DNA from: an uncultured Acidobacteriota bacterium
Lineage (GTDB): Bacteria > Acidobacteriota > Vicinamibacteria > Vicinamibacterales > UBA2999
Assembly (NCBI GenBank): GCA_963846685.1
Contig: CAWJWY010000002.1
Span: 1,924,023 to 1,988,022, forward strand
DNA length: 64,000 bases
Reading direction: 5' to 3'
Shown here: positions 4,487-52,493 of the stretch, piece after piece
How the letters are laid out: each line of letters opens with the position of its first letter
Numbering within the stretch: the first letter of the stretch is position 1
Made by a program: the position numbers and the translations under genes
The notes under the pieces: model-generated
The model's database searches: none
What the model was told of the DNA's origin: nothing
The model's input: only the letters and a program-made list of their open reading frames with translations

Positions 4487-7400
4487 TCAGAACGACAGCT
4501 TGGTCGCGACCTGGATCACCCGGGGCGCCTGCGACAGCGAGATGACCTTGCCGAAGTTGGCGTTGCTCATGTTCGTGACCGGGTTGCTGGGATTGGCGTG
4601 ATTGAGCAGGTTGAACGCCTCGATGCGCAGCTGGAGCTGCTTCGAACCGGTGACTCGGAAGTTGCGCGACAGGTTCGCGTCGATGTTCCAGCGGCCCGGG
4701 CCCTGGAACGCATCGAGTGGCATCGTGCCGTAAGTGCCTGCCGCCGGCACGGCGAACGCCGCCGGATTGAGCCACTGGTTGTAGCTCGGGTCGGCGACGA
4801 ACGGATCGTCGAGCACCTGGTTTGCGCGCTGCGCATTCTGGCCGGTCAGCGCCGAATCGACACCGGTGGTGACCGTCAGGTAGCTGCCCGAGCGCGCGCT
4901 GACGATCGACGAGACCTGCCAGCCACCGGTGAGTACGCCCAGGACGCCCGGGCCACCGGTAGGCGTCGCATAGACGATCGAGCCATTGAAGATGTGGTCG
5001 TTGGTGTTGGTGCAGCGTGCGTGGTCACGCTCGCGGTCGTGCGGCACCATGTAGGTGTTGCCCGCCGTGCCCGGCTCGTAGTTGATCACGTCCGACGTGC
5101 AGTTGGAGTAGGTGTAGGTGCCCTGCAGGGTGAAGCCGGCGGCGCGGCGGCGCTGCAGCTGGATTGCCACGGCGTCATACGCCCCCTGCCCCTCGCTGAG
5201 CACACCGACGACCGCTGAGTAGTACGGTCCCCACACCGGGTCCTGCAGCGTCAGCTCGCGGCGGGCGTTGACGTTGTTGGCGGTGGATGCGCCTGGGATG
5301 TAGACCGCCGGGTTGAGCGAGTCGGTGGTCCAGGCGTTGCGCGTCCGCGTCGCCAGGTAGTTGAGCGACCAAGCGACGTTGTCGCCGACCTGCTGCTGGT
5401 AGCTCGCATTCCACTGATGGACGTTGGTTGCCGGCTGATCGACCGGGAACGACGTGTACGAACCGCCGAGCGGGAAGGTGAAGTCCTTCGACAGGACGAA
5501 CGGCTGCGGGTTGCCGCCCGGATAGGCCGCCCATGGGTCCTCCCAGCCGTTGGGCAGATTCGTGATGCTCAGGTTGTTGCCGAACGGCGGCATCTGCGGC
5601 AGCGACGAATAGGTCTGCAGGTGCGGCATGTCGTACAAGTGGCCATAGGAAGCGCGCAGTGTCCGGCGCCCCTCGGCGGTCGGATCGTAGACCACGCTCA
5701 GGCGGGGCGAGAAGTTCCACCACTGGTTCTTGGCGATCTTGTTGCCGTCCGGCATGCCAGGGTCGCCCGGGAACATCAGGCCGGGGGGTGCCTTCGGGAA
5801 CACCGTGCTGCGGACACCCTGGTTGAACGCTTCGCGGTCGAAGTGCGTGATGTGGCCGTCCAGTGAGAAGATCGGCAGGTACGGTTCCCAGCGCAGCCCG
5901 TAGTTCACCGTGAAGTTCGGCGACAGGCGCCAGCTGTCCTGGCCGTAGATGCCGATGTAATTCGCCCGGATGGTGTTGCCGGACACGACGCCGGTACCGA
6001 AGTTCGTCGAGCGGCCGAGCAGAAAGTCGGCCAGGCCAAGACCCGTCACCTGACCCGAGAAAGTGTTGGCGCCTACCGCGCGCAGGTACGACATCGAGTT
6101 GTAGACCGTGCGGATGTAATTGGCGCCGACTCCGATGGTGTGCGCCCCCTTGATCGTCGTCAAGTCGTCGGCGATCTGGTAGGCGCGCGTCGGCGTGTCA
6201 CCGGGTTGCGCATTGCTCGCGCCCATCGAGAAGCCGCCGGTCACGTTGACGTTGATCAGCCCCGGCACCGGCGGAATCACCGGGATACCCAGGTCGGTCG
6301 CATCGAGGATGTCGACCGAGTACTTGTGGTAATCGCCGCGGTTGGCAGTCACCCGGATCGAGTTGACGGTATTGCCGGTCATCACCAGCGTGTCGCCGAA
6401 CACGAATGAATAGAGACGGTTCTGGACGTCCGTGCTCTTGATCGCGTTGATGTACTCACTGACGCTCGCCGGCGAATCCTGCTTCTGATACTCCATGCGG
6501 CCGAACACGGTGTGGTTGCCCGACAGCGTGTAGTCGACCTTGCCGATGAGCATGTGCTCATCCTGCTTGTTGACCTGGTCGTAGAACGCCTTGCCACACT
6601 CGTCGATCGGCTGCGTCAGCCGCGCCGACACCGCGAGTGACGCCCGCGAGAAGAGCGCCGGGTTGACCTGGTTGTTGACAAACGGCGCGCGCAGCGTGAT
6701 ATCGCGGCCGCTGTTGCACGCCGGCGACGTCACCGCCCTGAAGTCGCCGCGCAGCATCGCCGCGGTCGGCACGAACTCGAACGCCGACGCCGGCGTCTGG
6801 CGCAGGAACGTCCCCTGGTAGCCGCCGAAGAAGAACAGCTTGTTCCGGATCAGTGGGCCACCGAGCGTTCCACCGGTCTGGTGCCGCTTCAGACCGTCGC
6901 CGCGGCGCTTGCCCGTCTCCGGGTTGACGGAGGCAAACGGGTCCGTCGCGTTGAGGCGAGCGTCGCGATAGAACTCGAAGAGCGTCCCGCTGAAGGTGTT
7001 GGTGCCCGACCGGGTGATCGCGTTCACCGCGCCCGCCGAGTGGCGGCCGTACTGCGCCGTCAGCGCGCTGGTTTCGACCTTGAATTCCTGCAGCGCCTCA
7101 GGGAACGGGAACGGCTGCGGCGCGTTGTTCATCGGATCGTTGTGATACCCGCCGTCGAGCAGGTAGGACGAGCCGTTGGCGAGACCGCCGGCGATGGCGA
7201 TCGTCTGCGTCGTGCCGACACCACCACGGATGCCGCTGAGCGTCCCGCTCTGCACCGCAATACCCGACAGCAGGATCAGGTCGGTGGCGTTGCGGCCGTT
7301 GAGCGGCAGTTCCTGGACTTTCTCGTTGTCGATCACCTGTCCAAGCCCCGGGTTGCGGGTTTCGACAAGCGGCGCGGTCGCTTCGACCTGCACCGTCTCG

Positions 7401-7756
7401 GTGAGCTCACCGACGCCGAGGACAGCGTTCAGCGTCGGGCTGGTCCCGACCTGCAGCACCACGCCGTTCTGTTGGAACGACTTGAACCCCTGCAGCGAGA
7501 ACTCGATCCGGTATGGACCGACCGGCAGCGCGTTGAGTGTGTAGTCGCCGGTCTCGCTGGTCACGGTGGTCCTGACCTGTCCGGTGGCTGTCTGCGTAGC
7601 GGTCACGGTGACCCCCGGCAGCACGCCGCCGCCATCGTCCTTGACGTTGCCGCCGAGCGAGGCAGTGGAAACTGCCTGCGCCGAGGCGGTCGCGACCAGC
7701 GACAACCAGACGAGGAACACCCACGCGAAATTACGGAATCGCTTCATAACAGTCAT
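4487..7756 (-). CDS. TonB-dependent outer-membrane receptor with N-terminal carboxypeptidase-regulatory-like domain
   Basis: 1089-aa intact ORF; signal peptide; CarboxypepD_reg-like N-terminus (GVTVTATQTATGQVRTTVTSETGDYTLNALPVGPYRIEF); C-terminal aromatic ending ...ATKLSF; GGGAG SD 9 nt upstream of ATG 7756. Confidence 0.85.
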   Translation of the reverse strand: MTVMKRFRNFAWVFLVWLSLVATASAQAVSTASLGGNVKDDGGGVLPGVTVTATQTATGQVRTTVTSETGDYTLNALPVGPYRIEFSLQGFKSFQQNGVVLQVGTSPTLNAVLGVGELTETVQVEATAPLVETRNPGLGQVIDNEKVQELPLNGRNATDLILLSGIAVQSGTLSGIRGGVGTTQTIAIAGGLANGSSYLLDGGYHNDPMNNAPQPFPFPEALQEFKVETSALTAQYGRHSAGAVNAITRSGTNTFSGTLFEFYRDARLNATDPFASVNPETGKRRGDGLKRHQTGGTLGGPLIRNKLFFFGGYQGTFLRQTPASAFEFVPTAAMLRGDFRAVTSPACNSGRDITLRAPFVNNQVNPALFSRASLAVSARLTQPIDECGKAFYDQVNKQDEHMLIGKVDYTLSGNHTVFGRMEYQKQDSPASVSEYINAIKSTDVQNRLYSFVFGDTLVMTGNTVNSIRVTANRGDYHKYSVDILDATDLGIPVIPPVPGLINVNVTGGFSMGASNAQPGDTPTRAYQIADDLTTIKGAHTIGVGANYIRTVYNSMSYLRAVGANTFSGQVTGLGLADFLLGRSTNFGTGVVSGNTIRANYIGIYGQDSWRLSPNFTVNYGLRWEPYLPIFSLDGHITHFDREAFNQGVRSTVFPKAPPGLMFPGDPGMPDGNKIAKNQWWNFSPRLSVVYDPTAEGRRTLRASYGHLYDMPHLQTYSSLPQMPPFGNNLSITNLPNGWEDPWAAYPGGNPQPFVLSKDFTFPLGGSYTSFPVDQPATNVHQWNASYQQQVGDNVAWSLNYLATRTRNAWTTDSLNPAVYIPGASTANNVNARRELTLQDPVWGPYYSAVVGVLSEGQGAYDAVAIQLQRRRAAGFTLQGTYTYSNCTSDVINYEPGTAGNTYMVPHDRERDHARCTNTNDHIFNGSIVYATPTGGPGVLGVLTGGWQVSSIVSARSGSYLTVTTGVDSALTGQNAQRANQVLDDPFVADPSYNQWLNPAAFAVPAAGTYGTMPLDAFQGPGRWNIDANLSRNFRVTGSKQLQLRIEAFNLLNHANPSNPVTNMSNANFGKVISLSQAPRVIQVATKLSF

Positions 7757-13557: not shown

Positions 13558-13838
13558 CGCGGTGCACTCTATCAAGGCCAGGGCTGGCGGACGGGAGTGG
13601 AGCGGCCTGACGCGCTGCGACTTAGCCCGTGGGCGATCGCCTGGCACGCCGCGGCCTACCAGCGACGCGGTGTGCGGCGGGCACGGAGATGCCGGGTCCG
13701 CTCCGCGGCACCCGGCCTGCGAAACCTAGCCGACCGAAGAAACCGGCCGACGGAAGCCGGCCTGCGGCACCCGGCCTGCGGAACCGGCCTACGCGCGTGG
13801 CCGGGTGATAGCGCCTGGCCGAGTGATAATAGCTGCAC

Positions 13839-14072: not shown

Positions 14073-14092
14073 GCTCACCTTCCTATTGAATA

Positions 14093-15297
14093 ATGAACCC
14101 TATGTCTCGTGCGATTGGCGCCGTGCAGGCCGGCACCGTCCGGCTCGGGTCCGACCATCTGCTGTCGTCGCCGCGGCTGCGCGGCACGCGGGTCGGCATT
14201 GTCTGCAATCATGCGTCGCTCGACCGCGGCTTCGTCCACATCGTCGACCGGCTGGCGCAGGCTGACGATGTCCGGCTCACGGCAATCTTCGGTCCGCAGC
14301 ACGGCTTTCGCTCCGACGTGCAGGACAACATGATCGAGACGCCGCACCGCGACGATCCGGGCGCGGCGCGTGCCGATCTACTCGCTGTACAGCGAGACGC
14401 GCGAGCCGACGGCGGAGATGCTGCGCGGCCTCGACGTCCTGGTCATCGACCTGCAGGACATCGGCGCCCGGATCTACACCTACATCTACACCATGGCGAA
14501 CTGCCTGCGCGCGTGCGCCCGGCACGGCGTGCCGGTGATCGTGTGCGACCGGCCGAACCCGATCAACGGCGTCGATGTCGAAGGCGAACTGCTCGCGCCC
14601 GGCTTCGAATCGTTCGTCGGTCAGTTCCCGATCCCGATGCGGCACGGCATGACCATCGGCGAGCTGGCGCGGCTGTTCAACGAGCACTTCCGTATCGGCG
14701 CCGCGCTCGAAGTGGCGAAGATGACCGGCTGGGAGCGCGAGATGTATGCCGACGAGACCGGCCTGCCCTGGGTGATGCCGTCGCCGAACATGCCGACGCT
14801 CGACACCGCGATCGTCTATCCGGGCACCGTGCTGTTCGAAGGCACGATGCTGTCGGAGGGGCGCGGCACGACACGACCGTTCGAGCTGGTCGGCGCGCCG
14901 TGGATCGAGGCGGAACGGTTTGCCCGCGCGATGAACGACCTCGGCCTGCCGGGCGCCTTCTTCCGTCCCGCCGTGTTCGAGCCGACGTTCCAGAAGCACG
15001 CGAAGCAGCCGTGCGGCGGCTGCCAGATCCACGTGACCGACCGGACCGCGTTCAAGCCGGTGCTCACCGGTCGGCGCTGATCGCAGATGTTCCGCCGCTT
15101 CGACCCCGGACACCTTCGCCTGGCGCCAGCCGCCCTACGAGTACGAGCACGACAAGCTGCCGATCGACATCCTGGCCGGTTCGACCGCAGCTGCGCGAAC
15201 AGATCGAAGCCGGAGTCGCCGCCACCGACATCGCCGCGAGCTGGCGGCAGGACGAGACCCGTTCCGAAAAGTCAGTGAGCCTTATCGCATTTATTGA
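14093..15297 (+). pseudogene. namZ: Exo-beta-N-acetylmuramidase NamZ (DUF1343 family), disrupted by >=3 frameshifts
   Basis: N-terminal segment in frame 2 (VGIVCNHASL...TAIFGPQHGFRSDVQD); middle in frame 0 (14370..15080: [20 protein letters not shown]); C-terminal motifs TFAWRQPPYEYEHDKLPIDILAGS and PQLREQIEAGVAATDIAASW in two further frames. Confidence 0.7.
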
Positions 15298-15340
15298 GGG
15301 GGATCACCCGCTGAACCCCCTGCCCCCCGAACCGTAACGC

Positions 15341-16206
15341 CTACGTCCTCGTCTTCGCGATTCCCGGCGCCTTCATCTCCTGCGCGGTGGGCGGGACGAG
15401 GTGGTGCTCGGTCAGGTGCTCCTTCAGCAGCTCGAACGCCTCCTGCGGCGTGTTCGCCGGTGTCACCAAGCTGATGTCGGGAACGCTGATGGCGCCCCAG
15501 TCGGCCATCGGCTCGCAGCTGCAGGATCGGGTCCCAGTAGTCCGAGCCGTAGAGGATGATCTGGATCTGCTTTTCGAGCTTCTCGGTCTGCATCAGCGTC
15601 AGGATCTCGAACATCTCGTCGAGCGTGCCGAAGCCGCCCGGAAAGATCACCAGCGCCTTCGCCAGGTAGGCGAACCAGAACTTGCGCATGAAGAAGTAGT
15701 GGAACTCGAAGTGCAGCCCGTCGGTGATGTAGCGGTTCGCGCCCTGCTCGAACGGCAGCCGGATGTTCAGGCCGATCGTCTTGCCGCCGGCCTCGTGGGC
15801 GCCGCGGTTGGCCGCCTCCATGATGCCCGGGTCCGCCGCCCGAGGTGACGACGAAGCGGTGGTGCGGCGAATCGAGCGTCATCGCCCATTCGGTCAGCAG
15901 CCCGGCGAGCTGGCGCGCGTCTTCGTAGTAGCGCGACCACTCGACCGCCTTGCGGCCGCGCGCCAGGTGCCGTTCGACCTCGCTGCCGGCGAGCGTGCCG
16001 TACTTCTGCTGCAGCTGTTCGAGCGCCTGCTGCGCCGATTCGCGGCTGTGGATGCGCGCCGAGCCGAAGAACACGACGGTGTCCTGGATGTTCTGCGCCT
16101 TGAACCGGCGCAGCGGCTCGAGGTATTCGGCGAGAATGCGGATCGGGCGAGCTTCGTCGCTCTCGAGAAAAGTCGGATCGAGGTAGGCGAGCGGCTGCGA
16201 GTGCAT
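15341..16206 (-). pseudogene. LOG-family protein (TIGR00730 Rossmann-fold nucleotide-binding), two frameshifts
   Basis: N-terminus ...FVVTSGGGPG then a frame switch to IMEAANRGAHEAGGKTIGLNI...PGGFGTLDE...ILYGSDYWDPILQL, then a third frame MADWGAISVPDISLVTPANTPQEAFELLKEHL. Confidence 0.7.
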
Positions 16207-16243
16207 CGGTCCATTATCCTTTACGGCTTCCCGACCACCGTGC

Positions 16244-16709
16244 GTGAACTCGAACCAGAGCCTGACCGTCAACGCCCCGCCGGCCGTGGTGCTCGACGCC
16301 TTCTTCGACAATGACGCGCTGATCGCGTGGTGGCAGGTGCGCCGTTCGTTGTGCGTGCCCCGGCCGCTCGGCAGCTACGCCCTGGAGTGGGAGCCGACCG
16401 AGTGGCGCGACGACATCCTCGGCCGTCTCGGCGGCACGTTTCACGGCACCGTGATGGAGTTCAAGCCGGGCCGCGAGTTCTTCGTCGCCGACGCCTACTG
16501 GCTGCCGCCCGGATGGCACGCCGATCGGGCCGATGGCCCTGACCGTGACCTGCACGATGCACGGCACGGCGACCGTGCTGCACGTGCGGCAGTCCGGATG
16601 GGCCAACAGCCCGCGTTGGAGCCGCTACTACGACATCATCGCCACCGGTTACGCGCTGTCGCTCGAGGACCTCAAGGCGCACGTCGAGCACAGGTGGAAT
16701 GCAGGTTGA
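16244..16709 (+). pseudogene. SRPBCC-superfamily (AHSA1/polyketide-cyclase-like) protein with one frameshift
   Basis: N-terminus LTVNAPPAVVLDAFFDNDALIAWW...GTFHGTVMEFKPGREF in one frame; C-terminus MALTVTCTMHGTATVLHVRQSGWANSPRWSRYYDIIATGYALSLEDLKAHVEHRW in another; switch near 16520. Confidence 0.6.
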
Positions 16710-16737
16710 GCAAGGCCCGATGCGCGATGCGGAATGC

Positions 16738-18163
16738 TCACACACGCTGGATCTTCAGGAAATTCGACGGCCCGCGCACGAGGTCGGGGGTGACGCTGAC
16801 CAGCACGATCACCGATCCGTGCGGCAACGCGTCGCGCGTGACGAGCTCTTCGCCGATGCGGCTGGCGACGGCGTTGACGTCACCGCTCAGTTCGGCAAAG
16901 ACGGGGACGACGCCCCAGGTCAGCGCCAGCCGCCGCGTCACGGCGGGCTGGTCGGTCGCGGCGAAGATCGGCACCGCCGGGCGCAGCGCCGACAGCACGC
17001 GCGCGGTCTTGCCTCCGCGCGTCACGGCAACAATCGCGCTGGCGTGACCGCGTTCCGACTAGCGTCACGGCCGCTTCGCACATCGCGCGACCGTGCCCGG
17101 TCAAGTACCGGGATCTCACCCACCGGCGACAGCGCCGGAATCGGCATGCGCCTCGGCGTCGCGGATCACCAGGTCGAGCGTCTGCACGGTGCGTGACGGG
17201 AAGGCGCCGGCCGCCGTCTCGCCGGCCAGCATGATGGCGTCGACACGATCGTGCACGGCGTTGGCCGCGTCGCTGACCTCGGCCCGGGTCGGCCGCGGCT
17301 CCTTGACGCATCGACTCGAACACCTGGGTGGCGACGATCACCGGGATGCCGAGCGCGCGGGCCCGGCGCGTGATCTCCTTCTGCACCCGCGGCACGCGTT
17401 CGAGCGGCAGCTCGAGCCCGAGATCGCCGCGCGCCACCATCACCGCGTCGGACTCGCGCAGGATCTCCTCGATGTGCGCGACCGCTTCCGGCCGTTCCAG
17501 CTTGGCTATGAGCGGGATGTGCGGGGCGCCGGCGTGGCGCAGCGCCTCGCGCGCCTGGCGCATGTCGGCGGCGGTCTGCACGAAGCTCAAGGCGATGAAA
17601 TCGACGCCCTGGCTGGACGCCGAACGCGAGGTCCTCGGCGTCCTTCGGCGTCAACCCGACCGACGGCAGCGTCGACGCCCGGGGCGTTGATGCCCTTGTG
17701 CTCGCCGAGCAGCCCGCCGTCGACCACGGTGGTGCTCAGGCCGCTGACCGTCCGAGTCCTCCACCCGCAACTGGATCCGCCCGTCGTCGAGCAGCAGCGC
17801 GTCGCCGCGGTGCACCGACTTGGCCAGATCGGCGTAGGTGGTGGAGACCCGGCCGGGCTCGCCCTCGAAGTCGCCGGCCTCGATCACCAGCGATCGTCGC
17901 CGGCGTTCAGCGGCAGTGGCTTCCCACCTTTGAGCGGACCGGTCCGGATCTTCGGGCCGCTGAGGTCCTGCAGGAGAGCGACACAGCGGCGCGCGTCGGC
18001 CGCGGCCTGGCGCACCCGGGCCATGGCCTGGGCATGGCTCTGCGTGCGTGCCGTGCGAGAAATTAAGCCGGAAGACGTCGACGCCGGCGGCGATCAGCTC
18101 GCGAATGCCGGCTTCGCTGCTCGACGCGGGGCCGAGGGTGGCGATGATCTTGGTTTGGCGCAC
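16738..18163 (-). pseudogene. pyk: Pyruvate kinase, disrupted by several frameshifts
   Basis: N-terminus [38 protein letters not shown] (17651..18163 frame); middle IAKLERPEAV...MVARGDLGLELP...[13 protein letters not shown] (16880..17590 frame); [31 protein letters not shown] is restored by deleting one C near 17308; C-terminal PK_C domain in the 16738..17025 frame. Confidence 0.75.
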
Positions 18164-18366
18164 GCCGGTATGTTACAGGGTCGCTTCGGGGGCCGGCCGG
18201 CATCCGTCCAGCCGGCATCCGTCCAGCCGGCATCTCGTCCCTGGGTGTTCGGTTACCGGCCGGCCAGCGTTTCCCGGACATGACGCCGAAAATCATTTCG
18301 CTGGCGCCGCTCCGCGGATATCATCCGGACCGCCGCGGCGCCTCTTCTGCCCCCCAGGAGATTCCC

Positions 18367-18945
18367 ATGGATCTCGAGTCGTCGCTCGATCTGCTGAATC
18401 TGGTCAAGGCCGGCGATGGTGATGCGCTCGACCGGCTCCTCACCCGCTACCAGGTGCCGCTGCGCCGCTGGGCCCGTGGCCGTCTGCCCACCTGGGCGCG
18501 CGACATGTCGGACACCGACGACCTCGTGCAGGACGCGGTGCTCAAGACGCTGCGTCACCTGAAAGAGTTCGAATACGCCGGACCTGGCGCGCTGCACGGC
18601 TACCTGCGCACCGCTGTCATGAACCGGATCCGCGACGAGCTCCGCCGGGCCGAGCGGCATCCGGTCCCCTCAGCGATCGAAGAAGACATGGCCGGCGAGA
18701 TGACCTCACCGCTCGACGCCGCCATCGGCGCCGAAGCGGTCGCCCGCTATGAAGCCGGCCTCCAGCAGCTCAGCGAGGGCGACCGGGAGCTGATCATCGC
18801 ACGCGTCGAGTGCGGCTTTTCCTACGAAGAAATCGCCGCGATCTTCCACAAGCCAACGGCGGCGGCCGCCGGCATGGCGGTGCGGCGCGCCTTGCTCAAA
18901 CTGGCGGATGCGATGGAGCCGCGGACGGCAGCAGCGGCGAACTGA
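18367..18945 (+). CDS. ECF-type RNA polymerase sigma-70 factor
   Basis: Sigma region 2 (DLVQDAVLKTLRHL) and region 4 (LSEGDRELIIARVECGFSYEEIAAIF); GGAG SD before ATG 18367. Confidence 0.75.
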   Translation: MDLESSLDLLNLVKAGDGDALDRLLTRYQVPLRRWARGRLPTWARDMSDTDDLVQDAVLKTLRHLKEFEYAGPGALHGYLRTAVMNRIRDELRRAERHPVPSAIEEDMAGEMTSPLDAAIGAEAVARYEAGLQQLSEGDRELIIARVECGFSYEEIAAIFHKPTAAAAGMAVRRALLKLADAMEPRTAAAAN

Positions 18946-18965
18946 CCCAGTGCGGGGCGCACCGG

Positions 18966-21503
18966 ATGGATGACTACGACGCGGACGATCAGGCCGGGCA
19001 CCGCGGCAGCAAGGACGAGGCGGCGCCGTGGGACGAACTGCTGGCGCGCGTCCCCGAGGCGGCAAGCGCACCGCCCGCCGAGCCGGCGCACGCCGCCAGT
19101 CCTGAACTGAACGAGTTGCTCGCCCGTGCCGCGGACGGCGACGACGCCAACGCAGTGGAAGCAGAGACGGTCACGCCGGATCCGCGCCGCCGCACGCGGC
19201 TGGAAAACCTGGCAATCGTTGCCGGTGTCAGGGAGCACTTCCAGCGGCAGGGCGAGCGGGTCAAGACGCCACCCGACATGCTGGCACGCAAGTCGTGGGG
19301 CAGCTTCGCACTGCGCGGCGTCATCGGCAGCGGCAGCTACGGCACCGTGTTCCGCGCCTGGAATCCGCGGCTCGAGCGCGAGGTCGCCCTCAAGCTGCTG
19401 CACAGCACGAAGATTCCAGTCAACGGCGACACACTCCTGGGCGAGGCGCGCATGCTCGCCAGCATCCGGCACCCGAACGTCGTCATGGTGCTCGATGCCG
19501 ACGATGTCGACGGGTGTGTCGGCGTCTCGATGGAGTACATCAAGGGTCGAACGCTGAAGGACATCATCGGCGAGCACGGCGCCTACAGCGCGCAGGAGGC
19601 CGCGGTGCTTGGCCTCGACCTGTGCGGCGCGCTCGCCGCGGTGCACCAGGCGAACCTGCTGCATCGGGACATCAAGGCACAGAACGTCATGCGGGCGGTG
19701 GGCGGCCGGATCGTGCTGATGGACTTCGGCGCGGCCAGCCTGGCGACGCTCGGCTCGTCCAGGGGAATCGGCACTCCGCTCTACGCAGCGCCCGAACTGC
19801 TCACGGGTGGCGCGCCCAGTTACGCCAGCGACATCTACAGCCTGGGCGTGCTGCTCTACTACCTGGCTAGTGGCGAGTTCCCGGTGACGGCGCGCAGCAT
19901 CGACGAGCTGCGCGCGGCGCACGCCGCCGGCCTGCGCCGATCCCTGCTCGACGCGCGGCCGGATCTGCCTGCCGCTTTCGTGCAGGCAATCGAGCGAGCC
20001 ACGGCCCCCGACCCCGACAGACGGCCGGGCAGCGCCGGCAAGATGGCCGAGCTGCTGGAGCGCGTCCTCGGCTCGGCCGCCGGGGCGTACACGGCACGCG
20101 CCGATCGTCGAATCGCCCCGGCCAATTCCATTGCCGTGATGCCCTTTCTCGACCTCAGCCCTGAGGGCAGCCTGGCCTTCTTCTGCGATGGCATCGCCGA
20201 GGAGATCACCAACGCCCTGACGCGCGTGCCAGGCGTCCGTGTCATCGCGCCGACGTCGGCATTCCGCTTCCGCGGTCGTGGTGGCACGCCTGGCGAGGTC
20301 GCCGCAATCCTCAAGGTGGGTACGTTGCTGGAGGGCACCGTCCGCGCCAACGGCAACTCACTCCGCGTCGTGTCACGGCTGGTCGACGCCGCTGACGAGC
20401 GCGTCCGCTGGTCGCAACGCTTCGACATGGACCGGGACGACGTGTTCGCGATGCAGGACGCGATTGCCGACGCGGCGGTGCGCGCGCTCGGCGGGTCGTT
20501 CATCGTCTCGCCCGCCGCGATGGGGGTGCTGCCGGTGGCGCCGAGCACACAGAACGCCGATGCCTACACGTTGTACCTGAAGGGCCGTTACTACTGGAAC
20601 CGCCGCAGCGAAACCGGCCTGCACAAGAGCGCCTCCTTCTTCGAAGCGGCAATTGATGCGGACCCGCAATACGCCGAGGCGTACGCGGGTCTGGCCGAGG
20701 CGTACGCCACCCTCGGGCTCTATGGCGTGCTTCGGCCGCAGGATTCGATGCCGCGCGCGCTGCGCGCCGCCAGGCGGGCAACGGAGCTGATGGAAAGGCT
20801 GGCGAGTCCGGTGGCCACGGCCGCGTGCATCACCGCCGTTTACGACTGGAACTGGAAGGATGGCGGCCGGGAGTTCGAGCGGGCCGTGGAGCTGAACCCA
20901 GCGCACCCGGCAGCGCACCACTGGTACGCGATCAACTATCTGGTGCCGCTCGGCCGGTTTGCCGAGGCAGCGGCAGAGTTGAAGCATGCGGAGGAAGCGG
21001 ACCCGCTGTCGATGCCGATTCGCGTCAGCGTCGGCATGCACAACTACTTCGCCCGCCGCTACGAGGACGCCGAGCGTGAGTTCCGCCAGGGCTTCGAACT
21101 CGATGCCGGCTCCGTCCTCGGCCGTGTCTTCCTCGGCCTGACGCTCGTGGAGATGGGGCGTTGCGATGACGCCGTGCGCGAACTGAACGTGGCGGCGCAG
21201 CTGTCGAACAGCCACGAAGCCGTGGCGGCACTCGGATACGCCCACGCCCGTGCCGGCCGGGCCGACGCGGCGCGAGAGCAGCTGGCGGAACTGCGCGCCG
21301 CCCGCGACGCCCGCTACGTTTCGGCGTCGCTGCTGGCGCAGGTCCACGCCGCACTCGGCGAGACGGCTGCGGCGCTGGACTGCCTGGAGAAGGCGAGCGA
21401 CGAACGTGCGCCGGATCTCGCCTGGCTGCGCGTGCGTCCGGTATTCGACGGGCTGCGCGCCGAAGGACGATTCGGCGCGCTCACGGGTCGCGTCGGCTTG
21501 TAG
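18966..21503 (+). CDS. Ser/Thr protein kinase with TolB-N-like and C-terminal TPR/BTAD-like repeats
   Basis: GSGSYGTVF P-loop, VALK, HRDIKAQNV catalytic loop, DFGAAS; followed by IAVMPFLDLSPEGSLAFFCDGIAEEIT and TPR-like repeats; immediately downstream of the ECF sigma gene. Confidence 0.8.
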   Translation: MDDYDADDQAGHRGSKDEAAPWDELLARVPEAASAPPAEPAHAASPELNELLARAADGDDANAVEAETVTPDPRRRTRLENLAIVAGVREHFQRQGERVKTPPDMLARKSWGSFALRGVIGSGSYGTVFRAWNPRLEREVALKLLHSTKIPVNGDTLLGEARMLASIRHPNVVMVLDADDVDGCVGVSMEYIKGRTLKDIIGEHGAYSAQEAAVLGLDLCGALAAVHQANLLHRDIKAQNVMRAVGGRIVLMDFGAASLATLGSSRGIGTPLYAAPELLTGGAPSYASDIYSLGVLLYYLASGEFPVTARSIDELRAAHAAGLRRSLLDARPDLPAAFVQAIERATAPDPDRRPGSAGKMAELLERVLGSAAGAYTARADRRIAPANSIAVMPFLDLSPEGSLAFFCDGIAEEITNALTRVPGVRVIAPTSAFRFRGRGGTPGEVAAILKVGTLLEGTVRANGNSLRVVSRLVDAADERVRWSQRFDMDRDDVFAMQDAIADAAVRALGGSFIVSPAAMGVLPVAPSTQNADAYTLYLKGRYYWNRRSETGLHKSASFFEAAIDADPQYAEAYAGLAEAYATLGLYGVLRPQDSMPRALRAARRATELMERLASPVATAACITAVYDWNWKDGGREFERAVELNPAHPAAHHWYAINYLVPLGRFAEAAAELKHAEEADPLSMPIRVSVGMHNYFARRYEDAEREFRQGFELDAGSVLGRVFLGLTLVEMGRCDDAVRELNVAAQLSNSHEAVAALGYAHARAGRADAAREQLAELRAARDARYVSASLLAQVHAALGETAAALDCLEKASDERAPDLAWLRVRPVFDGLRAEGRFGALTGRVGL

Positions 21504-21508
21504 CGGAC

Positions 21509-24500
21509 TCAGCGAAGCGCATCGAGCGTGAGCCTGGCCTGCTTCAGGTCGTAGGTGTCGTGGCCCTCGGTGAACGACTCGAAGATCGGCTCTAGCAGCG
21601 CGCGCGCGCGGTCGCGGGCCACCGCCTCGTTCCGCGACGCCAACAGCGTGGCCAGCGTCGTTGCGCTGCGCAGCGCCCAGGCGCGGGCCTCCTGCTGGCA
21701 GGCCACCTCAATCGACTGCCGGAGCTCGGCTTCGGCGGCGTCTGCGTTCCCCGGCTGCTGCAGCAACAGCCAGCCTTTCATCCGCAAGACCTCCGGCAGC
21801 CACACCCGCTCGTCCCATCCCGGCCGCTCGATTTGTTGAACGCATTCTTCGAGCAGCTGGAATGCGGCATCGACCTCGCCCTTGCGCGCGAGCGCTTCGG
21901 CGAGCGCGCACTTGAAGTACAGGGACGTGGAGGTGGCCGCCGCCGGCATTCCAGGCAGTGATGCCACGGCGAAGCTGCGCAACCGCCTGGTCCAGATCGC
22001 CGAGACGTAGCCGCGCCAGCCCTTCGCCCAGGGGAACGAGCACCCTGGAGATGAGCGGGATGCTCTGCTCGCAACCGAGCAGGTGGGCCTCGCCGACTTT
22101 CTCGAGCAGTCGCTCGGGCTCGCCGCGATAGTCGAAGACGTAGGACCCCCAGGTCAGCGCCCAGCCGAGATCGAAGGGGTGGCCCAGCCGGCGCGCATGG
22201 TCATCCTTTTCGTCGCTGACCTGCTTGGCGCGCTCCGGGTAGCCGAGCATCCACAGCCACTGCGCCGAGAAGACGCCGACCGCGGTGCGGACATCACTGC
22301 CGGTCAACTCCTTCCAGTAGCCGGCGCGCTCCGGCGTGTACAAGGCGGTCGCGCTGTTACCGTGCTTGTCCGCGGCGGCGAGTCTGCCAAGGTAGAACTG
22401 CGAGGTCATGCTGCCGCGGTGACCGAGGATCTGCAGATCGACGTTGTTGCTCGTGTCGCCTTCTGCCAGCAGCCGCTCCGCCCAATGCGGCGCCTCAGCG
22501 ATTCGACCCTGCGTGACGGTGTTGACCCACATGCCCCACAGGCCGACGAGCAGGCTCTGCGGACTGTCCTGGCTGCCGGCAAGCCGCAGAATGGCCTTGG
22601 CGTTGGCGCCAACCTCGGGTTCGGCCCAGCCCTGGAAGCGCAGCCGGGCGGCGTGCAACGGCTCGCGCAAGGAGAGCTCCAGCGTGTCCCGCTCGGCGGA
22701 GGGCGGCAGCTGATCGACGACCGTCAACCCCTCCTTCAGGTAGGCAACGGCCTCCTTATTGGCCACCCTCGCCAGCGCCGCCTCGCCGGCGCGCCGCCAG
22801 AGTGGTACCGCCTCGGCGAGCCGTCCCGCCTCGGTGTAGTGGCGCGCCAGCAGCTCCGGTTCGTGGGCGACCGTTTCGGCGAATCGCTGCTCCAGCGCCT
22901 CGGCGATCCGGGCATGCAGCCGCTGCCGCTTGCTCCTGAGCAGCGAGTCGTAGGCCGCATCACGCACCAGTGCGTGCTTGAAGGTGTAGGTCGCTTCCGG
23001 CGGCGTGCCGCGGCGGAACACGAGTCCGGTTCCCACCAGTTGCTCGAGCTCCTCGTCGAACTCGGCGCCCGCGTACCGCGAGGCCGCCGCCAGCAGCTCG
23101 TAGGAGAACTCGCGGCCGATGCACGACCCGATTTGCGCCAGCTCGCGGACACCGACCCGGCGCCCGAGCCGCTCGATCAGCGACGCATTCAGCGTCTTTG
23201 GCACTTCCAGCGCCAGCGATTCGAGTGCGGTATAGCGGTCGGCCTCCTCGTGGAGAAGCGGCGACTCGAGCATCGACTTCGTCAGCTCCTCGATGAAAAG
23301 CGGCACGCCGTCGGCGTGCGCGACGATGCGGGCGAGCACCTGCTGCGGCAAGGCCTTCCCCTGCGTCACTTTGCCGACTAGTTCGTTGCCGAGATGCTGC
23401 GGCAGCCCGGTCAAGCCGATGGTGGCGACGTGACCGTAGCCATCGGCGCGCGGCGTGTACTGTGGGCGGTAGGTGAGCACCAGCATGACGCGCAGGCTGC
23501 GCAGCCGCGGCACGATCAGCTCGATCAGTTCACGGCTGGTCGGGTCGATCCAGTGCGCATCTTCGAAGACGATCAGCACCGGCTGGAGCCTGGAGAGCGC
23601 CTCGACCTGCGCGATCAGGGCATCGAGCATCTTCTCCTTCTGACGCTGCGGCGACAGTCCGAGTAGCGGGTAGCGCGTCGTCGGCAGCGAGAGCAGCGGC
23701 GCGAACAACGTCGCGGCTTCAATCCGTTGCGGTTGGCTGCCGACGAGTACGGCGTCGAGTTTGTCGAGTTTCTGCTCCGGCGTGTCGTCGCGCGTGAAGC
23801 CAGCGGCAAACTCCAGTTGCTCGACGATGGGGTGCAGCGGCGCGTTCAGCTGAAACGGCGAGCACTGGTAGCGCATGACGATGTGCGGCTCGAGGCGGAT
23901 ACGCTCGCTCAGCACCTGAGTGAGCCTGGACTTGCCGATCCCTGCCTCGCCGCTGAGCAGCACGACCTGTCCTTCGCCGCTCCGCGCCAACAGCCAGTGG
24001 CGCATCAGCAGCGCCACCTCCTCTTCGCGCCCGACCAGGTCGGTCAACGGCACGTCGCCGTGCACGGCGTCGAAGCGATCCCGGCTCCTGTTCACCGCGC
24101 GCACACGCCACGACCGCACCGGCTGGACGATGCCCTTCAAGGTGTGTTCACCTAGATCGGTCAGGTCGAAGAAGTTGCCGATCAGCAGCCTCGTACCAGG
24201 GTCGATCACCACCTCGCCGGCGCTGGCGACCCCTTCCTGAAGGCGGGCGGCAAGGTTCGGCGTCTCGCCGACTGCGAGCGAGTCACCGGCCGTGTTCTCC
24301 CGCGCCGCTTCGCCGACGACAACCGAACCTGTCGCCACGCCGACGCGAACCGCCAGCGCGCCGCCAGCGATACCTTTGACCGCCTCGACGATTTCCAGGG
24401 CCGCTCGAACGGAGCGCTCGGCGTCGTTCTCGTGCGCGTCGGGGAAGCCGAAGTAGACCATCACTCCGTCACCCAGATACTGCCTGACGTTACCGTCGTA

Positions 24501-24887
24501 GGCCTGGACGGTGGTGGTGCACGCCTGGAAGTAGGCGTCCCGCAGCTTCTTGACCTGTTCGCGGTCGAGGCGCTGGTTCAACTCGGTGTAACCCACCAGG
24601 TCGCAGAACATCACGGTGAGCTGCCGATTTTCGTCGTGAGACAGCGGCGTGCGTTCGAGCGCCTGGCCGGTGACGCGCCGCGGGGCCGGCAGGGCTACGT
24701 CGCGGCTGGCGGTCGTTGCCGCCGCCTGCAGCAGCCGCAGCGTGTCGCCCAGGTTCAGACCAAGCCCAATCAGGTCCTCGCGCGTCAGCGCCGGCAGCAC
24801 GTCGAAGTCGTCGATACCGTTCTGCACCAGGACCGAACGGCGGTGCGCGAGACCGTTCTGGGTGAGCCATTCGGAGAAGGACGCCAT
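21509..24887 (-). CDS. SAM-domain / adenylate-guanylate cyclase / AAA(STAND)-ATPase / TPR multidomain regulator; likely one frameshift near 21980
   Basis: N-terminal SAM-like segment; cyclase catalytic motifs (LTVMFCDLVGYTEL, YLGDGVMVYFGFP); P-loop VVLLSGEAGIGKSRL; C-terminal TPR region continues in the separate 21509..21982 frame. Confidence 0.7.
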
Positions 24888-24998
24888 GGGGACCGGGATG
24901 CCTCCTGAGTGGGCGCATTATCGTCCACGGCCGAAGAATTCGCATGACCCTTTCGTGATACGGTTCCCCCGCCAAACGCGGCTTCTTCATATCTGCCC

Positions 24999-27386
24999 AT
25001 GGCTGACATCCCTGGAGCGATCCGTCCGGCCGCTGCGTACCCAAGCCGGCGCACCGACGCCTTCTTCGACAGGCATCCGATCAGCGGCGCGACCTATACG
25101 ACGGCAAACCGCGCCGTCGTGCCGCTGGAACTGCAGTACGACGGCGGCGAGATGCTGCACATCTACGGCGAGTGCGCCAACCTCGCGCAGGTGGACGAGG
25201 CCGTCGCCGGAAGCGGTTACCGGCCGCTCCTCGTGGAACGCGCGGCCGGGCGCGCAGCAGCCGTCGCGCAGGTCTGGGCCTGCCGCTTCACGGACACGAC
25301 CATCGGACCCTACAGCGCTGTGTTCATCGTCCTCGTCGTCGTACCGCGCGACGTGCCAGCGGCGCGACGGTCGATCCGCACCGGCGGTCACAGTGCGGCT
25401 GCTGCGCTGGCGATGCTCGATGGCTCAGTCGACCCGGTCACCTGCGGCTACGAGAACCACGCGCGACTGTTCATGGTCCGCCTGATCGACACCACCGAGG
25501 TGGCGATCGATGTCGGGCGCGAGCGGATGGGCACCGACAAGCGGCCGGGCGGCATCGAGCTGACGAGAGATGGCCGCTATCTCCATCTCTCGGTCACGGA
25601 TCAGAAGCACCGCGGCGTGATCACCGCTCGTGTGCAGCTCGCCGATGATCCCTCGGCTTACCTGCCCGAGCTGGCGACGGCTGCAGCCGCCGCAGGGATC
25701 CCGCTCCGCCGGCTGCCCTTGGGAGCGGAGTACTGCTACCCCGCCGTCGCCCGGATTGGCCGTGGCCCAATCGCTACCTGGCAGTGGCGGAGTGACGTCG
25801 TTCCCGCATTCCAGCCAGTCGCACCTGGAGCCGTCATCATCGATGCCGCCTCGGAGGAAGGACGGATGCTGCAGGCATGGGACTTCACGCCGACGGTGCT
25901 TGGCTACATTGCCAACGTCCGCGGCGTGATCACCGGGCTCGGACGCGACGCCTCGGCGCGAGTGCATCTGCACCAGGCGGCCTCACCGCTAGACGAATCG
26001 TGCGGCTGGATGCGGCGATCGGCGGCGCTCGCGAGCGAACGGCTCACATCCGGGGCAGGAGGAGGATACGCAGTGCAGCAGCCCGCACGGGACGGATCGA
26101 CGATGTCGTGGGGCACGGTGGAGACCCCGGCGGTGCCGGCCACGGTCACCGCCGGCACACCCGTGGAGGTGGCCGTAGCAGTCTCACCTATCCGGCCAGG
26201 GCACGCGGTCACCGTTGACTACCGGGTTGACGGCGGGCCGTTGAGGCAGGTGACGGCGTCTCCGGGCACCCGGGCGCGGAACGTCAATGCCCGCCTGTTC
26301 CGGGCGAGTATCCCGGCGCACGCACAGGGACGTGTGTCGTTCCTGCCGGTGCTGCGGCTGGCGGGACAGCCGCTCACACCCCGGCTTGGCGAGTCGGGCA
26401 CCGCACTCGAATACGAGATTCCGGCCGGCGCACCGCCGTCCGGTGAGGCTGCTGCCCCAGATGCTTCTGCGACGACCGGGCAGCCGCAGTGGGCCTGGGA
26501 GGCAAGCTACCTTGGGTCGCTGTCGGCGCAACTGCGAAAGGAGAAGGTGGGTGTCACTCCAGACGGCTTGCGGATTGACTGGCATGTCATGCATGGCAGC
26601 TTCGCTGGCCCGGGCATCGAACTGAACGTGTTGCCGGGTGCGGCCGACTGGATGCGCATCCGCAAGGACGGCATCGGCATCGTCAACGTGCAGGTGTGTC
26701 TCGAGAGCCGCGACGGCGAGCGGCTCTATGGCGCTTACGGCGGCATTGCCGACCTCGGCCCCGACGGCTACGAGCGCGCCCTGCGTGATGACTTCGACGC
26801 CGTCCTGCCGGTTGTCGTCACGCCAACCTATGCAACGTCGGTCGCCCGGTTGCAATGGCTGAACCGGGCGCAGTGTCTCGGCGTGGGGCGGATGAACATG
26901 CCGGCGCTGCAGGTTGAGTTCGACGTTCACCTGGTGCGCGCAGGAGACCGGCTCGGAGTGTCAGCAGCCGGCCGGAACGGCGTGAGCGGCGCTGGCGGGC
27001 ATCCTTCGGCGGCGCCGCAGAGCCTGTACGCGCGGATGGGCGGCTACGACGTGCTTGCGGCGGTGGCTGACGATTTCATTACGTCGATTTCCTCGGATCC
27101 GCAACTCGGGCGGCTGTTCGTCGGCGGCTACCCGCCCGAACGGATGAACGCGGTCCGTCAGCACGTCGTCGAGTTCCTGTGTTCGATTACCGGCGGCTCG
27201 TGCTTCTATCTTGGGCGGGACATGAAGACGACGCACAGAGGGATGGGGATTACCGGCGCCGACTGGGAGATCGGCTTGCGCCGGGTAATCGCCGCGCTGA
27301 CCAAATCGCGCGTCGCCGCGCCCGAGCAAGCGGAGTTCGTCCGGATCATCCAGGGGCTACGAAGCACAATCGTCGAACGCCCGTAG
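24999..27386 (+). CDS. 795-aa multidomain protein: N-terminal beta-rich domain (ADC-like?), central DUF3237-like domain, C-terminal group-I truncated hemoglobin
   Basis: C-terminus YARMGGYDVLAAVADDFITSISSDPQLGRLF...THRGMGITGADWEIGL matches the bacterial globin (trHb) family; central GVTPDGLRIDWHVMHGSFAGPGIELNVLPGAADWMRIRKDGIGIVNVQVCLESRDGERLYGAYGG resembles DUF3237. Confidence 0.6.
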   Translation: MADIPGAIRPAAAYPSRRTDAFFDRHPISGATYTTANRAVVPLELQYDGGEMLHIYGECANLAQVDEAVAGSGYRPLLVERAAGRAAAVAQVWACRFTDTTIGPYSAVFIVLVVVPRDVPAARRSIRTGGHSAAAALAMLDGSVDPVTCGYENHARLFMVRLIDTTEVAIDVGRERMGTDKRPGGIELTRDGRYLHLSVTDQKHRGVITARVQLADDPSAYLPELATAAAAAGIPLRRLPLGAEYCYPAVARIGRGPIATWQWRSDVVPAFQPVAPGAVIIDAASEEGRMLQAWDFTPTVLGYIANVRGVITGLGRDASARVHLHQAASPLDESCGWMRRSAALASERLTSGAGGGYAVQQPARDGSTMSWGTVETPAVPATVTAGTPVEVAVAVSPIRPGHAVTVDYRVDGGPLRQVTASPGTRARNVNARLFRASIPAHAQGRVSFLPVLRLAGQPLTPRLGESGTALEYEIPAGAPPSGEAAAPDASATTGQPQWAWEASYLGSLSAQLRKEKVGVTPDGLRIDWHVMHGSFAGPGIELNVLPGAADWMRIRKDGIGIVNVQVCLESRDGERLYGAYGGIADLGPDGYERALRDDFDAVLPVVVTPTYATSVARLQWLNRAQCLGVGRMNMPALQVEFDVHLVRAGDRLGVSAAGRNGVSGAGGHPSAAPQSLYARMGGYDVLAAVADDFITSISSDPQLGRLFVGGYPPERMNAVRQHVVEFLCSITGGSCFYLGRDMKTTHRGMGITGADWEIGLRRVIAALTKSRVAAPEQAEFVRIIQGLRSTIVERP

Positions 27387-27389
27387 GCG

Positions 27390-28118
27390 TCAGCGCACGT
27401 CGATCGTGATCAGCGCGCGTAGGTCGTCAACGCCCTTCGCAACCACGAGCCCGGTGTAGGAGCCTGCCTTCGCCGCGCCAGGCACCGTCACGGACACGTG
27501 CACCTCCTGCCGCCCGCCAGCGCCGAGCCGAAGCTCCGGCGGTGAGACGTCGACGTTGCTCGCGACGATGCGTTCGCCATTGGCACTCAACAAGTCCGTC
27601 AGCAGCAGGGTCACGACCAGCGGCGTGCTTTCGTCGTTGGACACCGTCATCGCCACGCTGGCGCGCTGCCCGGGCTGAACCGGTCCTCGGCCGCGAAGCT
27701 CGCACACCGGCGGCTCCGTCGACGCGGGCTGCGCCCATCCTGCCGGCGCCCCACCCCGGCCGATGGCGCCCTGCAGCGTGGGCCAGGCCGCCGCGAGCTG
27801 GTCGACCAACTCGTGCACCTGCCGCAGCATCGGCGCGGTGCCATCGCGCTCCTGCACCCCCGGCCGCGCGGCGAGGTTGCGCGCCGACAGCACGCCCCTC
27901 GCCATTTCCTCGTCGAGGATTGATGCCGCCTCGGCAACGATGCGCGCTGGCGCCTGGGCCACGGCGTCCGACTCGCCGCCCACCTGTGCCGGGTTGCCGC
28001 GAAGCACCGGTGCCAAGGAGGACGGGAGCAGTTCCGATTCCGATCCCGGAAATGGGATCAGCCGGCGGGTGAGGCGGCTGGCGGCGTCGAGTGCCGGGCC
28101 GATACCGGGAATCGTCAT
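27390..28118 (-). CDS. Hypothetical protein, last gene of the encapsulin-linked operon
   Basis: ORF 27390..28355; probable start at Met 28118 (MTIPGIGPALDAAS...) 60 nt downstream of the polyprenyl synthase stop; beta-rich C-terminal half. Confidence 0.45.
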   Translation of the reverse strand: MTIPGIGPALDAASRLTRRLIPFPGSESELLPSSLAPVLRGNPAQVGGESDAVAQAPARIVAEAASILDEEMARGVLSARNLAARPGVQERDGTAPMLRQVHELVDQLAAAWPTLQGAIGRGGAPAGWAQPASTEPPVCELRGRGPVQPGQRASVAMTVSNDESTPLVVTLLLTDLLSANGERIVASNVDVSPPELRLGAGGRQEVHVSVTVPGAAKAGSYTGLVVAKGVDDLRALITIDVR

Positions 28119-28177
28119 CGGTTGAAGCACGCCGGGCGGCTGCCAACGCTTCTCGTCCACAACTACCTCCCTGAGAT

Positions 28178-29245
28178 CTAGAGATCCCGACGGACCACGT
28201 AGTCGATCACCTGTTTCACGAACGCCGTATCGCCGGACGGCGGCCGATCGCCGAAAGCGCGCGTGAATTCGAACATCGCCGCACCTGCGAGCTGTCGTGA
28301 CACCGACCGCGCGTAGTCGAAGCTGCCCGCAGCGCGCATGCGCTGCAGCATCCATTGCACATCTGCCGGTGAGCGTCCCGATCGCGGGCGGTTGAAGAAA
28401 CGGTCGATCGTCTCCCGGTCGGCCAGGCCGACTTGGCGCAGCACGTGGATCAGCATGAGCGTGCGCTTGCCCTCGAGCAGGTCGCCGCCGATCTCCTTGC
28501 CGTAACGCTTGACGTCGCCGGTCAGATTCAGCAGATCATCCTGGATCTGGAATGCGGCGCCGAGAAAAAAGCCGAAGCGGTTGAACCGGTCGAGGTCGAC
28601 GCCGTCACGCGTGGCAATCAGGGCGCCAATCCGGCATGGCTGGATGAAGCTGTACCAGCAGGTCTTCTTCAGCACCATGCGCAGGTAGTCGGACTCGGTG
28701 ACGTCGCAGCGATTCTCGCGGATCCAGCCCAGCTCCATCGCCTGGCCTTCGAGCGACTCACGCATCATGTGCTCGAACTCGTCGAACACCCGCCAGGTGA
28801 TGGTGCTGCCAAGTGGCGACAGGTTCTCGCGCAGCATGCTGACGCTCATCGCATTCAGCATGTCGCCGGCGTTCACCGCCAGCGGGACACCGTGCTCGGC
28901 GTGCATGGTCGGCAGGCCGCGGCGCAGGTCGCTCTCGTCTTCGACGTCGTCGTGCACGAGGAAAGCGTTGTGGAGCATCTCGATCGCGCTTGCCGATGGA
29001 CGAGCCAGCGCCTCGTCGCCGCCGAAGGCGCGGCACGTCGCGATGCACAGCGCCGGCCGCAGGCTCTTGCCGCTCCGCGCCAGATGTGCCGCGAGCGGCT
29101 CGTACAGGTAGCGGCGCGGCTCGCGGTCGGGAATTGCGGTGAGCAGGCGCAACACCGTCGATTCGCGGTACGCCGCCAGCCGCTCCAGGAACGGCGGGCC
29201 AGCGTCGCTGGCGGAAGGCTCGTACGGGTGCGCGGACATCGCCAC
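28178..29245 (-). CDS. Polyprenyl diphosphate synthase (trans-isoprenyl diphosphate synthase family, GGPP/FPP synthase-like)
   Basis: First and second aspartate-rich motifs (FLVHDDVEDESD; FQIQDDLLN); chain-length region LHNAFLVHDD. Confidence 0.8.
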   Translation of the reverse strand: MAMSAHPYEPSASDAGPPFLERLAAYRESTVLRLLTAIPDREPRRYLYEPLAAHLARSGKSLRPALCIATCRAFGGDEALARPSASAIEMLHNAFLVHDDVEDESDLRRGLPTMHAEHGVPLAVNAGDMLNAMSVSMLRENLSPLGSTITWRVFDEFEHMMRESLEGQAMELGWIRENRCDVTESDYLRMVLKKTCWYSFIQPCRIGALIATRDGVDLDRFNRFGFFLGAAFQIQDDLLNLTGDVKRYGKEIGGDLLEGKRTLMLIHVLRQVGLADRETIDRFFNRPRSGRSPADVQWMLQRMRAAGSFDYARSVSRQLAGAAMFEFTRAFGDRPPSGDTAFVKQVIDYVVRRDL

Positions 29246-29249
29246 CTGG

Positions 29250-31241: not shown

Positions 31242-31367
31242 CCGTAGTCCGACCGAACCATGTGATGGCGGGCCTCGCCGTCGTAGGGAGCTCTACGATG
31301 CCCGGCGCTCACACCTCTGTTCGGCAGTGGGCACGTGCCGCCACCGAAGAGGGCTTCCACCCAGCCC

Positions 31368-32633: not shown

Positions 32634-32861
32634 GCCGTTCGTCTCCATTCGCCGCCTGGGGTGTGGCGCCGCGGTCTGTGCACAGTTCGGCGCGAGCGTG
32701 CGCGGATTATTAGCCGAGTTCGCGGTTGCCGGCAAATACAACCTGTTAGCTGCAGGCGCAGGGCACGCGCGGGGGCTTCTCCGGCTACGGCTTCTCCCGT
32801 CCCCGCTTGTGAAGTACCGTCACATCAGGCCGTCGATGCCGGGTCCGCTGCGCGGCACCCG

Positions 32862-33600: not shown

Positions 33601-33858
33601 GCGTGCTGCGCGGAACCGCGGTCTACTGCTGCGGCACTGGGCGGACCCTACTGCGGCAGACGCGGCAACTTTGGTGGGACTTGATGACCGTCAAGAGCTG
33701 GCTCGAACACGCTATCCAGGACGCCGAACGCCGCGGCCTGCCTGGCCTCAAATCGCTGCTCGAGACGCTCGCCCGCTCGACCTCGGCGCTGCGCAGCGCC
33801 GACTGGAACAGCGATGCCGCGTCTGAACTCGCCGACCGCGCCCCGCGACGGCCGATCA

Positions 33859-50875: not shown

Positions 50876-50951
50876 GGGCCTGTAGCGCAGTTGGGAGCGC
50901 GCCTGAATGGCATTCAGGAGGTCACCGGTTCGATCCCGGTCAGGTCCACCA
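50876..50951 (+). tRNA. tRNA-Ala (anticodon GGC)
   Basis: Cloverleaf: acceptor GGGCCTG/CAGGTCC with G3:U70; D arm GCGC-AGTTGGGA-GCGC; anticodon stem CCTGA/TCAGG with loop ATGGCAT; T arm ACCGG-TTCGATC-CCGGT; encoded CCA. Confidence 0.85.
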
Positions 50952-51164
50952 ACCTTTCATTTCCATCCGTCAATCGGCCGCAAGTAGCTGAAGGCCGGTG
51001 CGGTTACGCGGGTTCCAACAAAGCCTTTTCCGTCGAACGCGATTCCGTCCGGAAAGAACAGTTGTTGGAACCGCTGCCGCTGTTCGAGCGACGCCTGCAC
51101 CCAGAGGTCGGCGGCGCGCGGCAGAACGCGTTCTGCGAACGCCAGGATGCCCTCTACGTCGAGT

Positions 51165-52434: not shown

Positions 52435-52493
52435 GGTCGGCAGCGTAGATCCATTCGCCGGCTCGGGCAAGCTGCGTTTGCGAGGCACGATGC

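Follow-up and report, generated by a model that had tools for sequence, protein, structure and literature searches.

Gene content and reading frames of the four-gene block

We analyzed a stretch of 64,000 nucleotides (nt) of contig CAWJWY010000002.1 (hereafter, the window, with coordinates counted from its first letter), which is high-GC DNA (about 67% GC) from an uncultured Vicinamibacterales bacterium of the Acidobacteriota, and we focus on four adjacent genes at positions 14093 to 18163 that are interrupted by frameshifts in the deposited sequence. These are namZ, which encodes an exo-beta-N-acetylmuramidase (DUF1343; 14093 to 15297, plus strand); a LOG-family gene (Lysine_decarbox/SLOG; 15341 to 16206, minus strand); an SRPBCC/AHSA1-like gene (16244 to 16709, plus strand); and pyk, which encodes pyruvate kinase (16738 to 18163, minus strand). 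Each of them is recognizable in the list of open reading frames (ORFs) but is divided among several frames. A codon-usage hidden Markov model (HMM), for which the long ORFs of the window served as the training set, splits this patch into about 18 short frame segments, whereas most other genes in the window are recovered as single long segments.

Position and type of the frameshifts

Frameshifting insertions and deletions (indels) were mapped with a frameshift-aware dynamic program that compares ortholog proteins from related loci with the window DNA, as well as by nucleotide alignment to 5 to 12 orthologs per gene; those in pyk were placed by nucleotide alignment to two closer relatives (L161 and L162, with 86% and 85% protein identity). 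Within 14359 to 18042, we found 18 frameshifting indels, comprising 16 insertions and 2 deletions, with six in namZ, two in the LOG gene, one in the SRPBCC gene, and nine in pyk. An earlier note on this DNA, made from the sequence alone, had reported at least eight frameshifts over the four genes and one to four frame switches in each: the frameshifts are real, but their number was understated, and the range per gene is exceeded in namZ and pyk. The inserted bases are mostly single G or C residues and mostly do not extend existing runs, so homopolymer slippage was rejected as their cause.

In namZ, both protein and nucleotide alignments place a 1-nt insertion at 14359 to 14362 (GATCCGG[G]CG, with inserted bases bracketed here and below), a 1-nt insertion at 15184 to 15189, and a 1-nt deletion at 15259 to 15261, all on the plus strand. 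Another 1-nt insertion lies at 15104 to 15118 (placed to within about 15 nt), and a compensating pair occupies 15071 to 15085, formed by a 1-nt deletion after 15071 and a 1-nt insertion at 15083 to 15085. The sole in-frame TGA of the patch is a CTGATC that is misread between the two members of this pair (15071/15083), which are 12 nt apart. The LOG gene, on the minus strand, has 1-nt insertions at 15515 (CAGCTG[C]GAGCC) and at 15825 to 15831 (GGACCCGG[G]CATC), and the SRPBCC gene, on the plus strand, has one at 16507 to 16511 (CCGCCC[G]GATGG).

The nine indels of pyk, all on the minus strand, are insertions that add 10 nt in total. Eight are 1 nt long and are located at 17060 (alignment column 1107), 17104 (GGTAC[T]TGAC, column 1063), 17148 (GAGGCG[C]ATGCC, column 1019), 17308 (GATG[C]GTCAAGG, column 859), 17616 (GGCGT[C]CAGCC, column 551), 17674 (GGCGT[C]GACGCTG, column 493), 17744 (GGTCA[G]CGGCC, column 423), and 18042 (CACG[C]AGAGCC, column 125); the ninth is a 2-nt insertion at 17893 to 17894 (GACG[AT]CGCTGG, columns 273 to 274). 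The C at 17308 (as read on the gene strand) is the base whose removal had been proposed in the earlier note to repair the frame, and the nucleotide alignment bears this out, in that its deletion restores the sequence of the 86%-identical orthologs.

Programmed recoding, by either ribosomal frameshifting or transcriptional slippage, would restore the four proteins from such a sequence, and the frames are indeed recoverable, which is all that speaks for it. The 18 sites, however, lie in heterogeneous contexts and have no slippery motif in common, the compensating pair in namZ spans only 12 nt, and one of the pyk lesions is an insertion of 2 nt. Moreover, wherever the window is shifted, its orthologs from short-read assemblies continue in a single ORF, and we regard the probability of programmed recoding as close to nil.

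Selective constraint on the corrected genes

Once the 18 indels are taken out, the patch encodes four full-length genes without an internal stop codon. The corrected namZ product spans both of its Pfam domains (NamZ_N, 1-202 of 203, and NamZ_C, 1-152 of 152) and is 80 to 83% identical to its orthologs; the corrected LOG product covers PF03641 (1-130 of 131), with 81 to 82% identity to orthologs, and the corrected SRPBCC product covers PF08327 (AHSA1, 1-125 of 125). At 471 amino acids (aa), the corrected pyruvate kinase has the usual length of its family and aligns over 100% of its length with 471-aa pyruvate kinases (PF00224 plus PF02887), the best identity being 86%. The corrected four genes contain no true nonsense codon, and there are no large deletions in the four-gene block.

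We then considered alignment columns in which one residue is present in at least 97% of 61 to 142 full-length orthologs (near-invariant positions). The corrected proteins keep the expected residue at 395 of 396 such positions, which equals or betters the median intact ortholog. If a ratio of five substitutions to one indel is assumed, in line with bacterial mutation spectra in general, the neutral accumulation of 18 real indels (with at least five substitutions per indel) predicts at least 20 replacements of invariant residues, such that the probability of observing one or none is below 6e-8. The retention of 395 of 396 near-invariant positions therefore argues against relaxed selection, and namZ, the LOG gene, the SRPBCC gene, and pyk are almost certainly intact in the organism itself.

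These results bear directly on the possibility, raised in the earlier note, that the region is a genuine pseudogene block in which four genes, including the glycolytic pyk, are decaying in this lineage and gathering frameshifts. The deposited sequence does break all four ORFs, as such decay would have it, and the block adjoins a 15.5-kb lineage-specific insertion (see below), which makes local genome flux plausible. Yet the block lacks nonsense codons and large deletions, and it preserves its near-invariant residues as intact orthologs do. Bacterial pseudogenes are generally reported to be deletion biased, and the 16:2 excess of insertions observed here runs in the opposite direction. In addition, the frameshift positions are not common to the closest relative (bar one column in a variable region), and frameshifts of the same kind occur in unrelated genes of the window and, preferentially, in the Nanopore-only assemblies of relatives, as detailed in the following two sections. 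We consider genuine gene decay very unlikely; nonsense codons are lacking, invariant residues are retained, and none of the frameshifts has a clear counterpart at the same position in relatives. This part of the earlier proposal is not supported.

Frameshifts in the rest of the window

Three further frameshifts, all on the minus strand, lie outside the patch. A regulator with SAM, adenylate-cyclase, AAA_16, and TPR domains (21509 to 24887) has its C-terminal TPR part in a different frame, with the shift located at 21924 to 21982; an M16 peptidase gene (38065 to 39382), which is a single ORF in relatives, contains a 1-nt insertion at 38376; and a large serine recombinase (about 51165 to 52430) is shifted at 51578 to 51645, such that its Resolvase and Recombinase domains share one frame and its Zn_ribbon_recom domain lies in another. 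The insertion in the peptidase gene is a +1 by alignment; for the other two, the +1 assignment comes only from frame arithmetic. Frame changes at 61.2 to 62.3 kb were also considered and were rejected as frameshifts because they reflect separate small genes. The presence of three +1 frameshifts in unrelated genes indicates that this assembly has a general background of indel errors.

Over the whole window, the 21 detected frameshifts comprise 19 insertions and 2 deletions. Their density is about 4.5 per kb in the patch and about 0.06 per kb (about 1 per 17 kb) outside it, an enrichment of about 77-fold that is approximate in that the screen outside the patch combined the codon-usage HMM with manual checks and close compensating pairs could have escaped it. 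Put differently, 18 of the 21 frameshifts fall within 7.3% of the coding sequence (binomial p = 3e-18). The error rate is thus not uniform, as the earlier note had maintained; the long flanking genes that it named as intact are so, but the sequence around the patch is not as clean as this implied, given the three +1 frameshifts elsewhere.

High GC content was examined as a possible cause of the clustering and was rejected: the patch has a GC content of 0.67 to 0.72, which is equaled at 33 to 35 kb and 47 to 49 kb, both of which are intact. Because equally GC-rich stretches are intact, composition alone is insufficient to account for the patch.

Frameshifts in related assemblies

We scored 160 related Vicinamibacterales loci for internal frameshifts in namZ, LOG, SRPBCC, and pyk, discarding as artefacts of the method any calls at extreme N termini and the paired (compensating) calls in the variable segment of pyk (L001 residues 355-373) in short-read assemblies. 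Internal frameshifts are present in 10 of 19 loci from the Microflora Danica (MFD-LR) set of Nanopore-only metagenome-assembled genomes (MAGs); among the 141 loci from other assemblies, there is 1 with such a frameshift (Fisher p = 4e-10). For the MFD-LR MAGs, assembly was done with Flye (meta, nano-hq) and was followed by a single round of Medaka, with no short-read polishing (PMC12313526). Short-read relatives are intact across the four-gene block, and the frameshifts track Nanopore-only assemblies in this comparison with orthologous regions, which the earlier note had suggested. The sole assembly outside the MFD set with an internal frameshift in the block is a JGI contig (L114, Ga0299906_10002290), in which the frameshift lies in LOG, at about position 3190.

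The form that the frameshifts take in these assemblies resembles that in the window. In a tally of events across the MFD loci, about 79% are +1 insertions, and insertions make up 19 of the 21 events in the window. Two of the MFD-LR loci (L005 and L034) contain multi-kb runs of short frame segments beside clean genes, and a short-read relative (L002) is clean. These dense patches extend over approximately 5150 to 7660 and 11000 to 20700 in L005, and over approximately 14090 to 17220 and 18380 to 20390 in L034. The MFD contigs in the control set reach 1.3 to 6 Mb, and one of the two just named is a near-complete contig of 5.97 Mb. The window's source contig, which is deposited in NCBI and ENA and on which exact matches place several of the window's proteins, measures 3,298,618 bp, a length that is common among long-read assemblies of uncultured soil bacteria and is consistent with such an origin.

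L005 is the closest nucleotide relative of the window. The 13 frameshifts in its pyk resemble those of the window in that most insert a single G or C away from homopolymers, and they occupy different positions in the gene; only one alignment column, in a variable region, coincides. Lesions common to both, whether ancestral or due to a systematic error at particular motifs, are not supported by this comparison, since one column coincides and about two near-coincidences are expected by chance. From the difference in positions, we conclude that the lesions arose independently in each assembly and are neither inherited nor bound to a motif. Scans of genome contigs and metagenome contigs, together with a search of a set of 5.8 billion proteins with the corrected pyk product, found no sequence from the same species; the best matches had 86 to 90% aa identity, and the nearest relatives in public genomes and metagenomes share 85 to 90%.

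The control also bears on a third alternative, namely, that the indels are real and stem from a very recent local mutational shower (arising, for example, during error-prone repair synthesis at a DNA break) that is too young for substitutions to have followed. The occurrence of 18 events within 3.7 kb, on both coding strands and with sharp borders, is what such a shower could leave, and the intact constraint fits events that are very recent. If this were true, a burst of insertions would have knocked out pyruvate kinase and three neighboring core genes in a natural Vicinamibacterales population, and the simultaneous loss of all four would have to be fixed in that population. However, three scattered sites elsewhere in the window carry the identical signature, as do other Nanopore MAGs, in which it falls at different positions. 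We also know of no bacterial mechanism that produces almost exclusively +1 insertions outside homopolymers without accompanying substitutions, and we judge a mutational shower to be extremely unlikely.

A probable local patch of consensus error

With high confidence, we interpret the hotspot not as a biological feature but as a stretch in which the consensus of a presumably long-read-only (Nanopore-type) metagenome assembly was locally left unpolished or was badly polished. A technical origin follows from the indel map and its spectrum, the restored ORFs, the intact constraint on the corrected proteins, the recurrence of the same type of error elsewhere in the window, and the technology-linked association among related assemblies. 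These results lend strong support to the earlier suggestion of a low-quality or low-coverage assembly segment, with low depth as one possible cause.

Under this explanation, the assembler or polisher would have left about 0.45% indel errors over about 4 kb, most of them spurious single G/C insertions, and polishing elsewhere on the contig would have left about 1 frameshift per 17 kb. A local decrease in usable read depth is one potential cause of the failure. Another is a mixed consensus of related soil strains, in which a conserved block situated between strain-variable flanks may have drawn reads from several populations.

Several points weigh against a consensus error. The artefact is deduced from the assembled sequence rather than observed in reads. 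The searches found no near-identical intact copy with which the patch could be compared directly, and the patch coincides with a conserved four-gene syntenic block, which a consensus error alone does not account for. To these may be added the approximate nature of the 77-fold contrast in density, as noted above.

The patch has little biological weight in itself, its genes being ordinary and almost certainly intact in the organism. Its significance is cautionary: in long-read-only MAGs from soil, clean sequence can adjoin multi-kb stretches with an indel error rate of about 0.5%. Annotation would turn such stretches into pseudogenes, and metabolic reconstructions would wrongly suggest that central metabolism (here, pyruvate kinase) has been lost. 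The insertion bias, the location of sites outside homopolymers, and the patchiness may help in flagging regions of this kind automatically.

Genomic context

Many Vicinamibacterales share the four-gene block in syntenic order. Three relatives (L002, L012, and L014) have, divergent from pyk, a gene whose counterpart in the window lies at approximately 33.7 to 35.2 kb, and this gene is followed by the same neighbors as in the window, i.e., a gene at 35.3 to 36.4 kb, a pair of M16 peptidases at 36.7 to 39.4 kb, and an Mrp-like ATPase. Because the neighbor of pyk in these relatives maps to about 33.7 kb, the window must contain a lineage-specific segment of about 15.5 kb directly after pyk (18170 to 33700), which includes an ECF sigma factor, a Ser/Thr kinase-TPR gene, the SAM-cyclase-AAA-TPR regulator, and a stretch of lower GC content at 30 to 33 kb. 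The left flank of namZ is likewise nonsyntenic, and with variable flanks on both sides, the 4-kb block forms a conserved core island.

Within this otherwise conserved block, the SRPBCC gene (~0.5 kb) is subject to recurrent flipping or loss: the SRPBCC/AHSA1-like gene is inverted in L001, L002, L006, and L093, is absent in L005, and has the same orientation as in the window in many others. The block also has a GC-rich, intergenic tandem repeat on each side, one consisting of four copies of a 14-nt unit (GAAGCCGGCCTACG; 13739 to 13793) and the other of 2.9 copies of a 15-nt unit (GCCGGCATCCGTCCA; 18196 to 18240). The two repeat units are unrelated to each other in sequence.

Other features of the window

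Near the right end of the lineage-specific segment, about 2 kb of 31230 to 33677 is called mostly noncoding by the codon-usage HMM (31230 to 32144 and 32610 to 33677), and the GC content is lower at 31 to 33 kb. There are no Rfam or tRNA matches in 31230 to 33677, which could be foreign DNA, could have atypical codon usage, or could represent further sequence damage.

Farther along, a tRNA-Ala(GGC) gene (50876 to 50951) is followed by the frameshifted large serine recombinase, on the opposite strand, and by small ORFs without Pfam matches; the region from 50876 to 53250 looks like an element integrated at a tRNA gene. Beside this putative integrated element, a protein encoded at 53720 to 54838 belongs to a 148-member cluster with the JGI name "three-Cys-motif partner protein" and sits in a stretch of lower GC content at 54 to 57 kb (about 0.60 to 0.63 GC).

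Comparison with known systems

Like the pseudogene blocks of reductive genome evolution, the patch consists of several adjacent genes with multiple frameshifts. It differs from them in having neither nonsense mutations nor large deletions, in showing no relaxed constraint, in its bias toward insertions, and in that its frameshifts are not inherited by relatives.

The closer match is with the residual indel and frameshift errors of long-read-only (Nanopore) assemblies, which have been described in connection with proovframe (bioRxiv 10.1101/2021.08.23.457338) and Kastor (PMC12007338) and have been discussed for R10.4 data (PMC9262707). As in Nanopore-only assemblies, single-base indels fragment conserved genes and reference-guided correction restores the ORFs; in addition, the lesions are linked to technology (10 of 19 versus 1 of 141 loci) and are patchy within contigs, as is also the case in L005 and L034. 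The patch nevertheless departs from the classic Nanopore error, i.e., homopolymer deletions, in that most of its lesions insert a single G or C away from long homopolymers, with a density of about 4.5 per kb over 4 kb. This signature of insertions outside homopolymers may point to a low-depth or mixed-strain consensus rather than to homopolymer miscalling.

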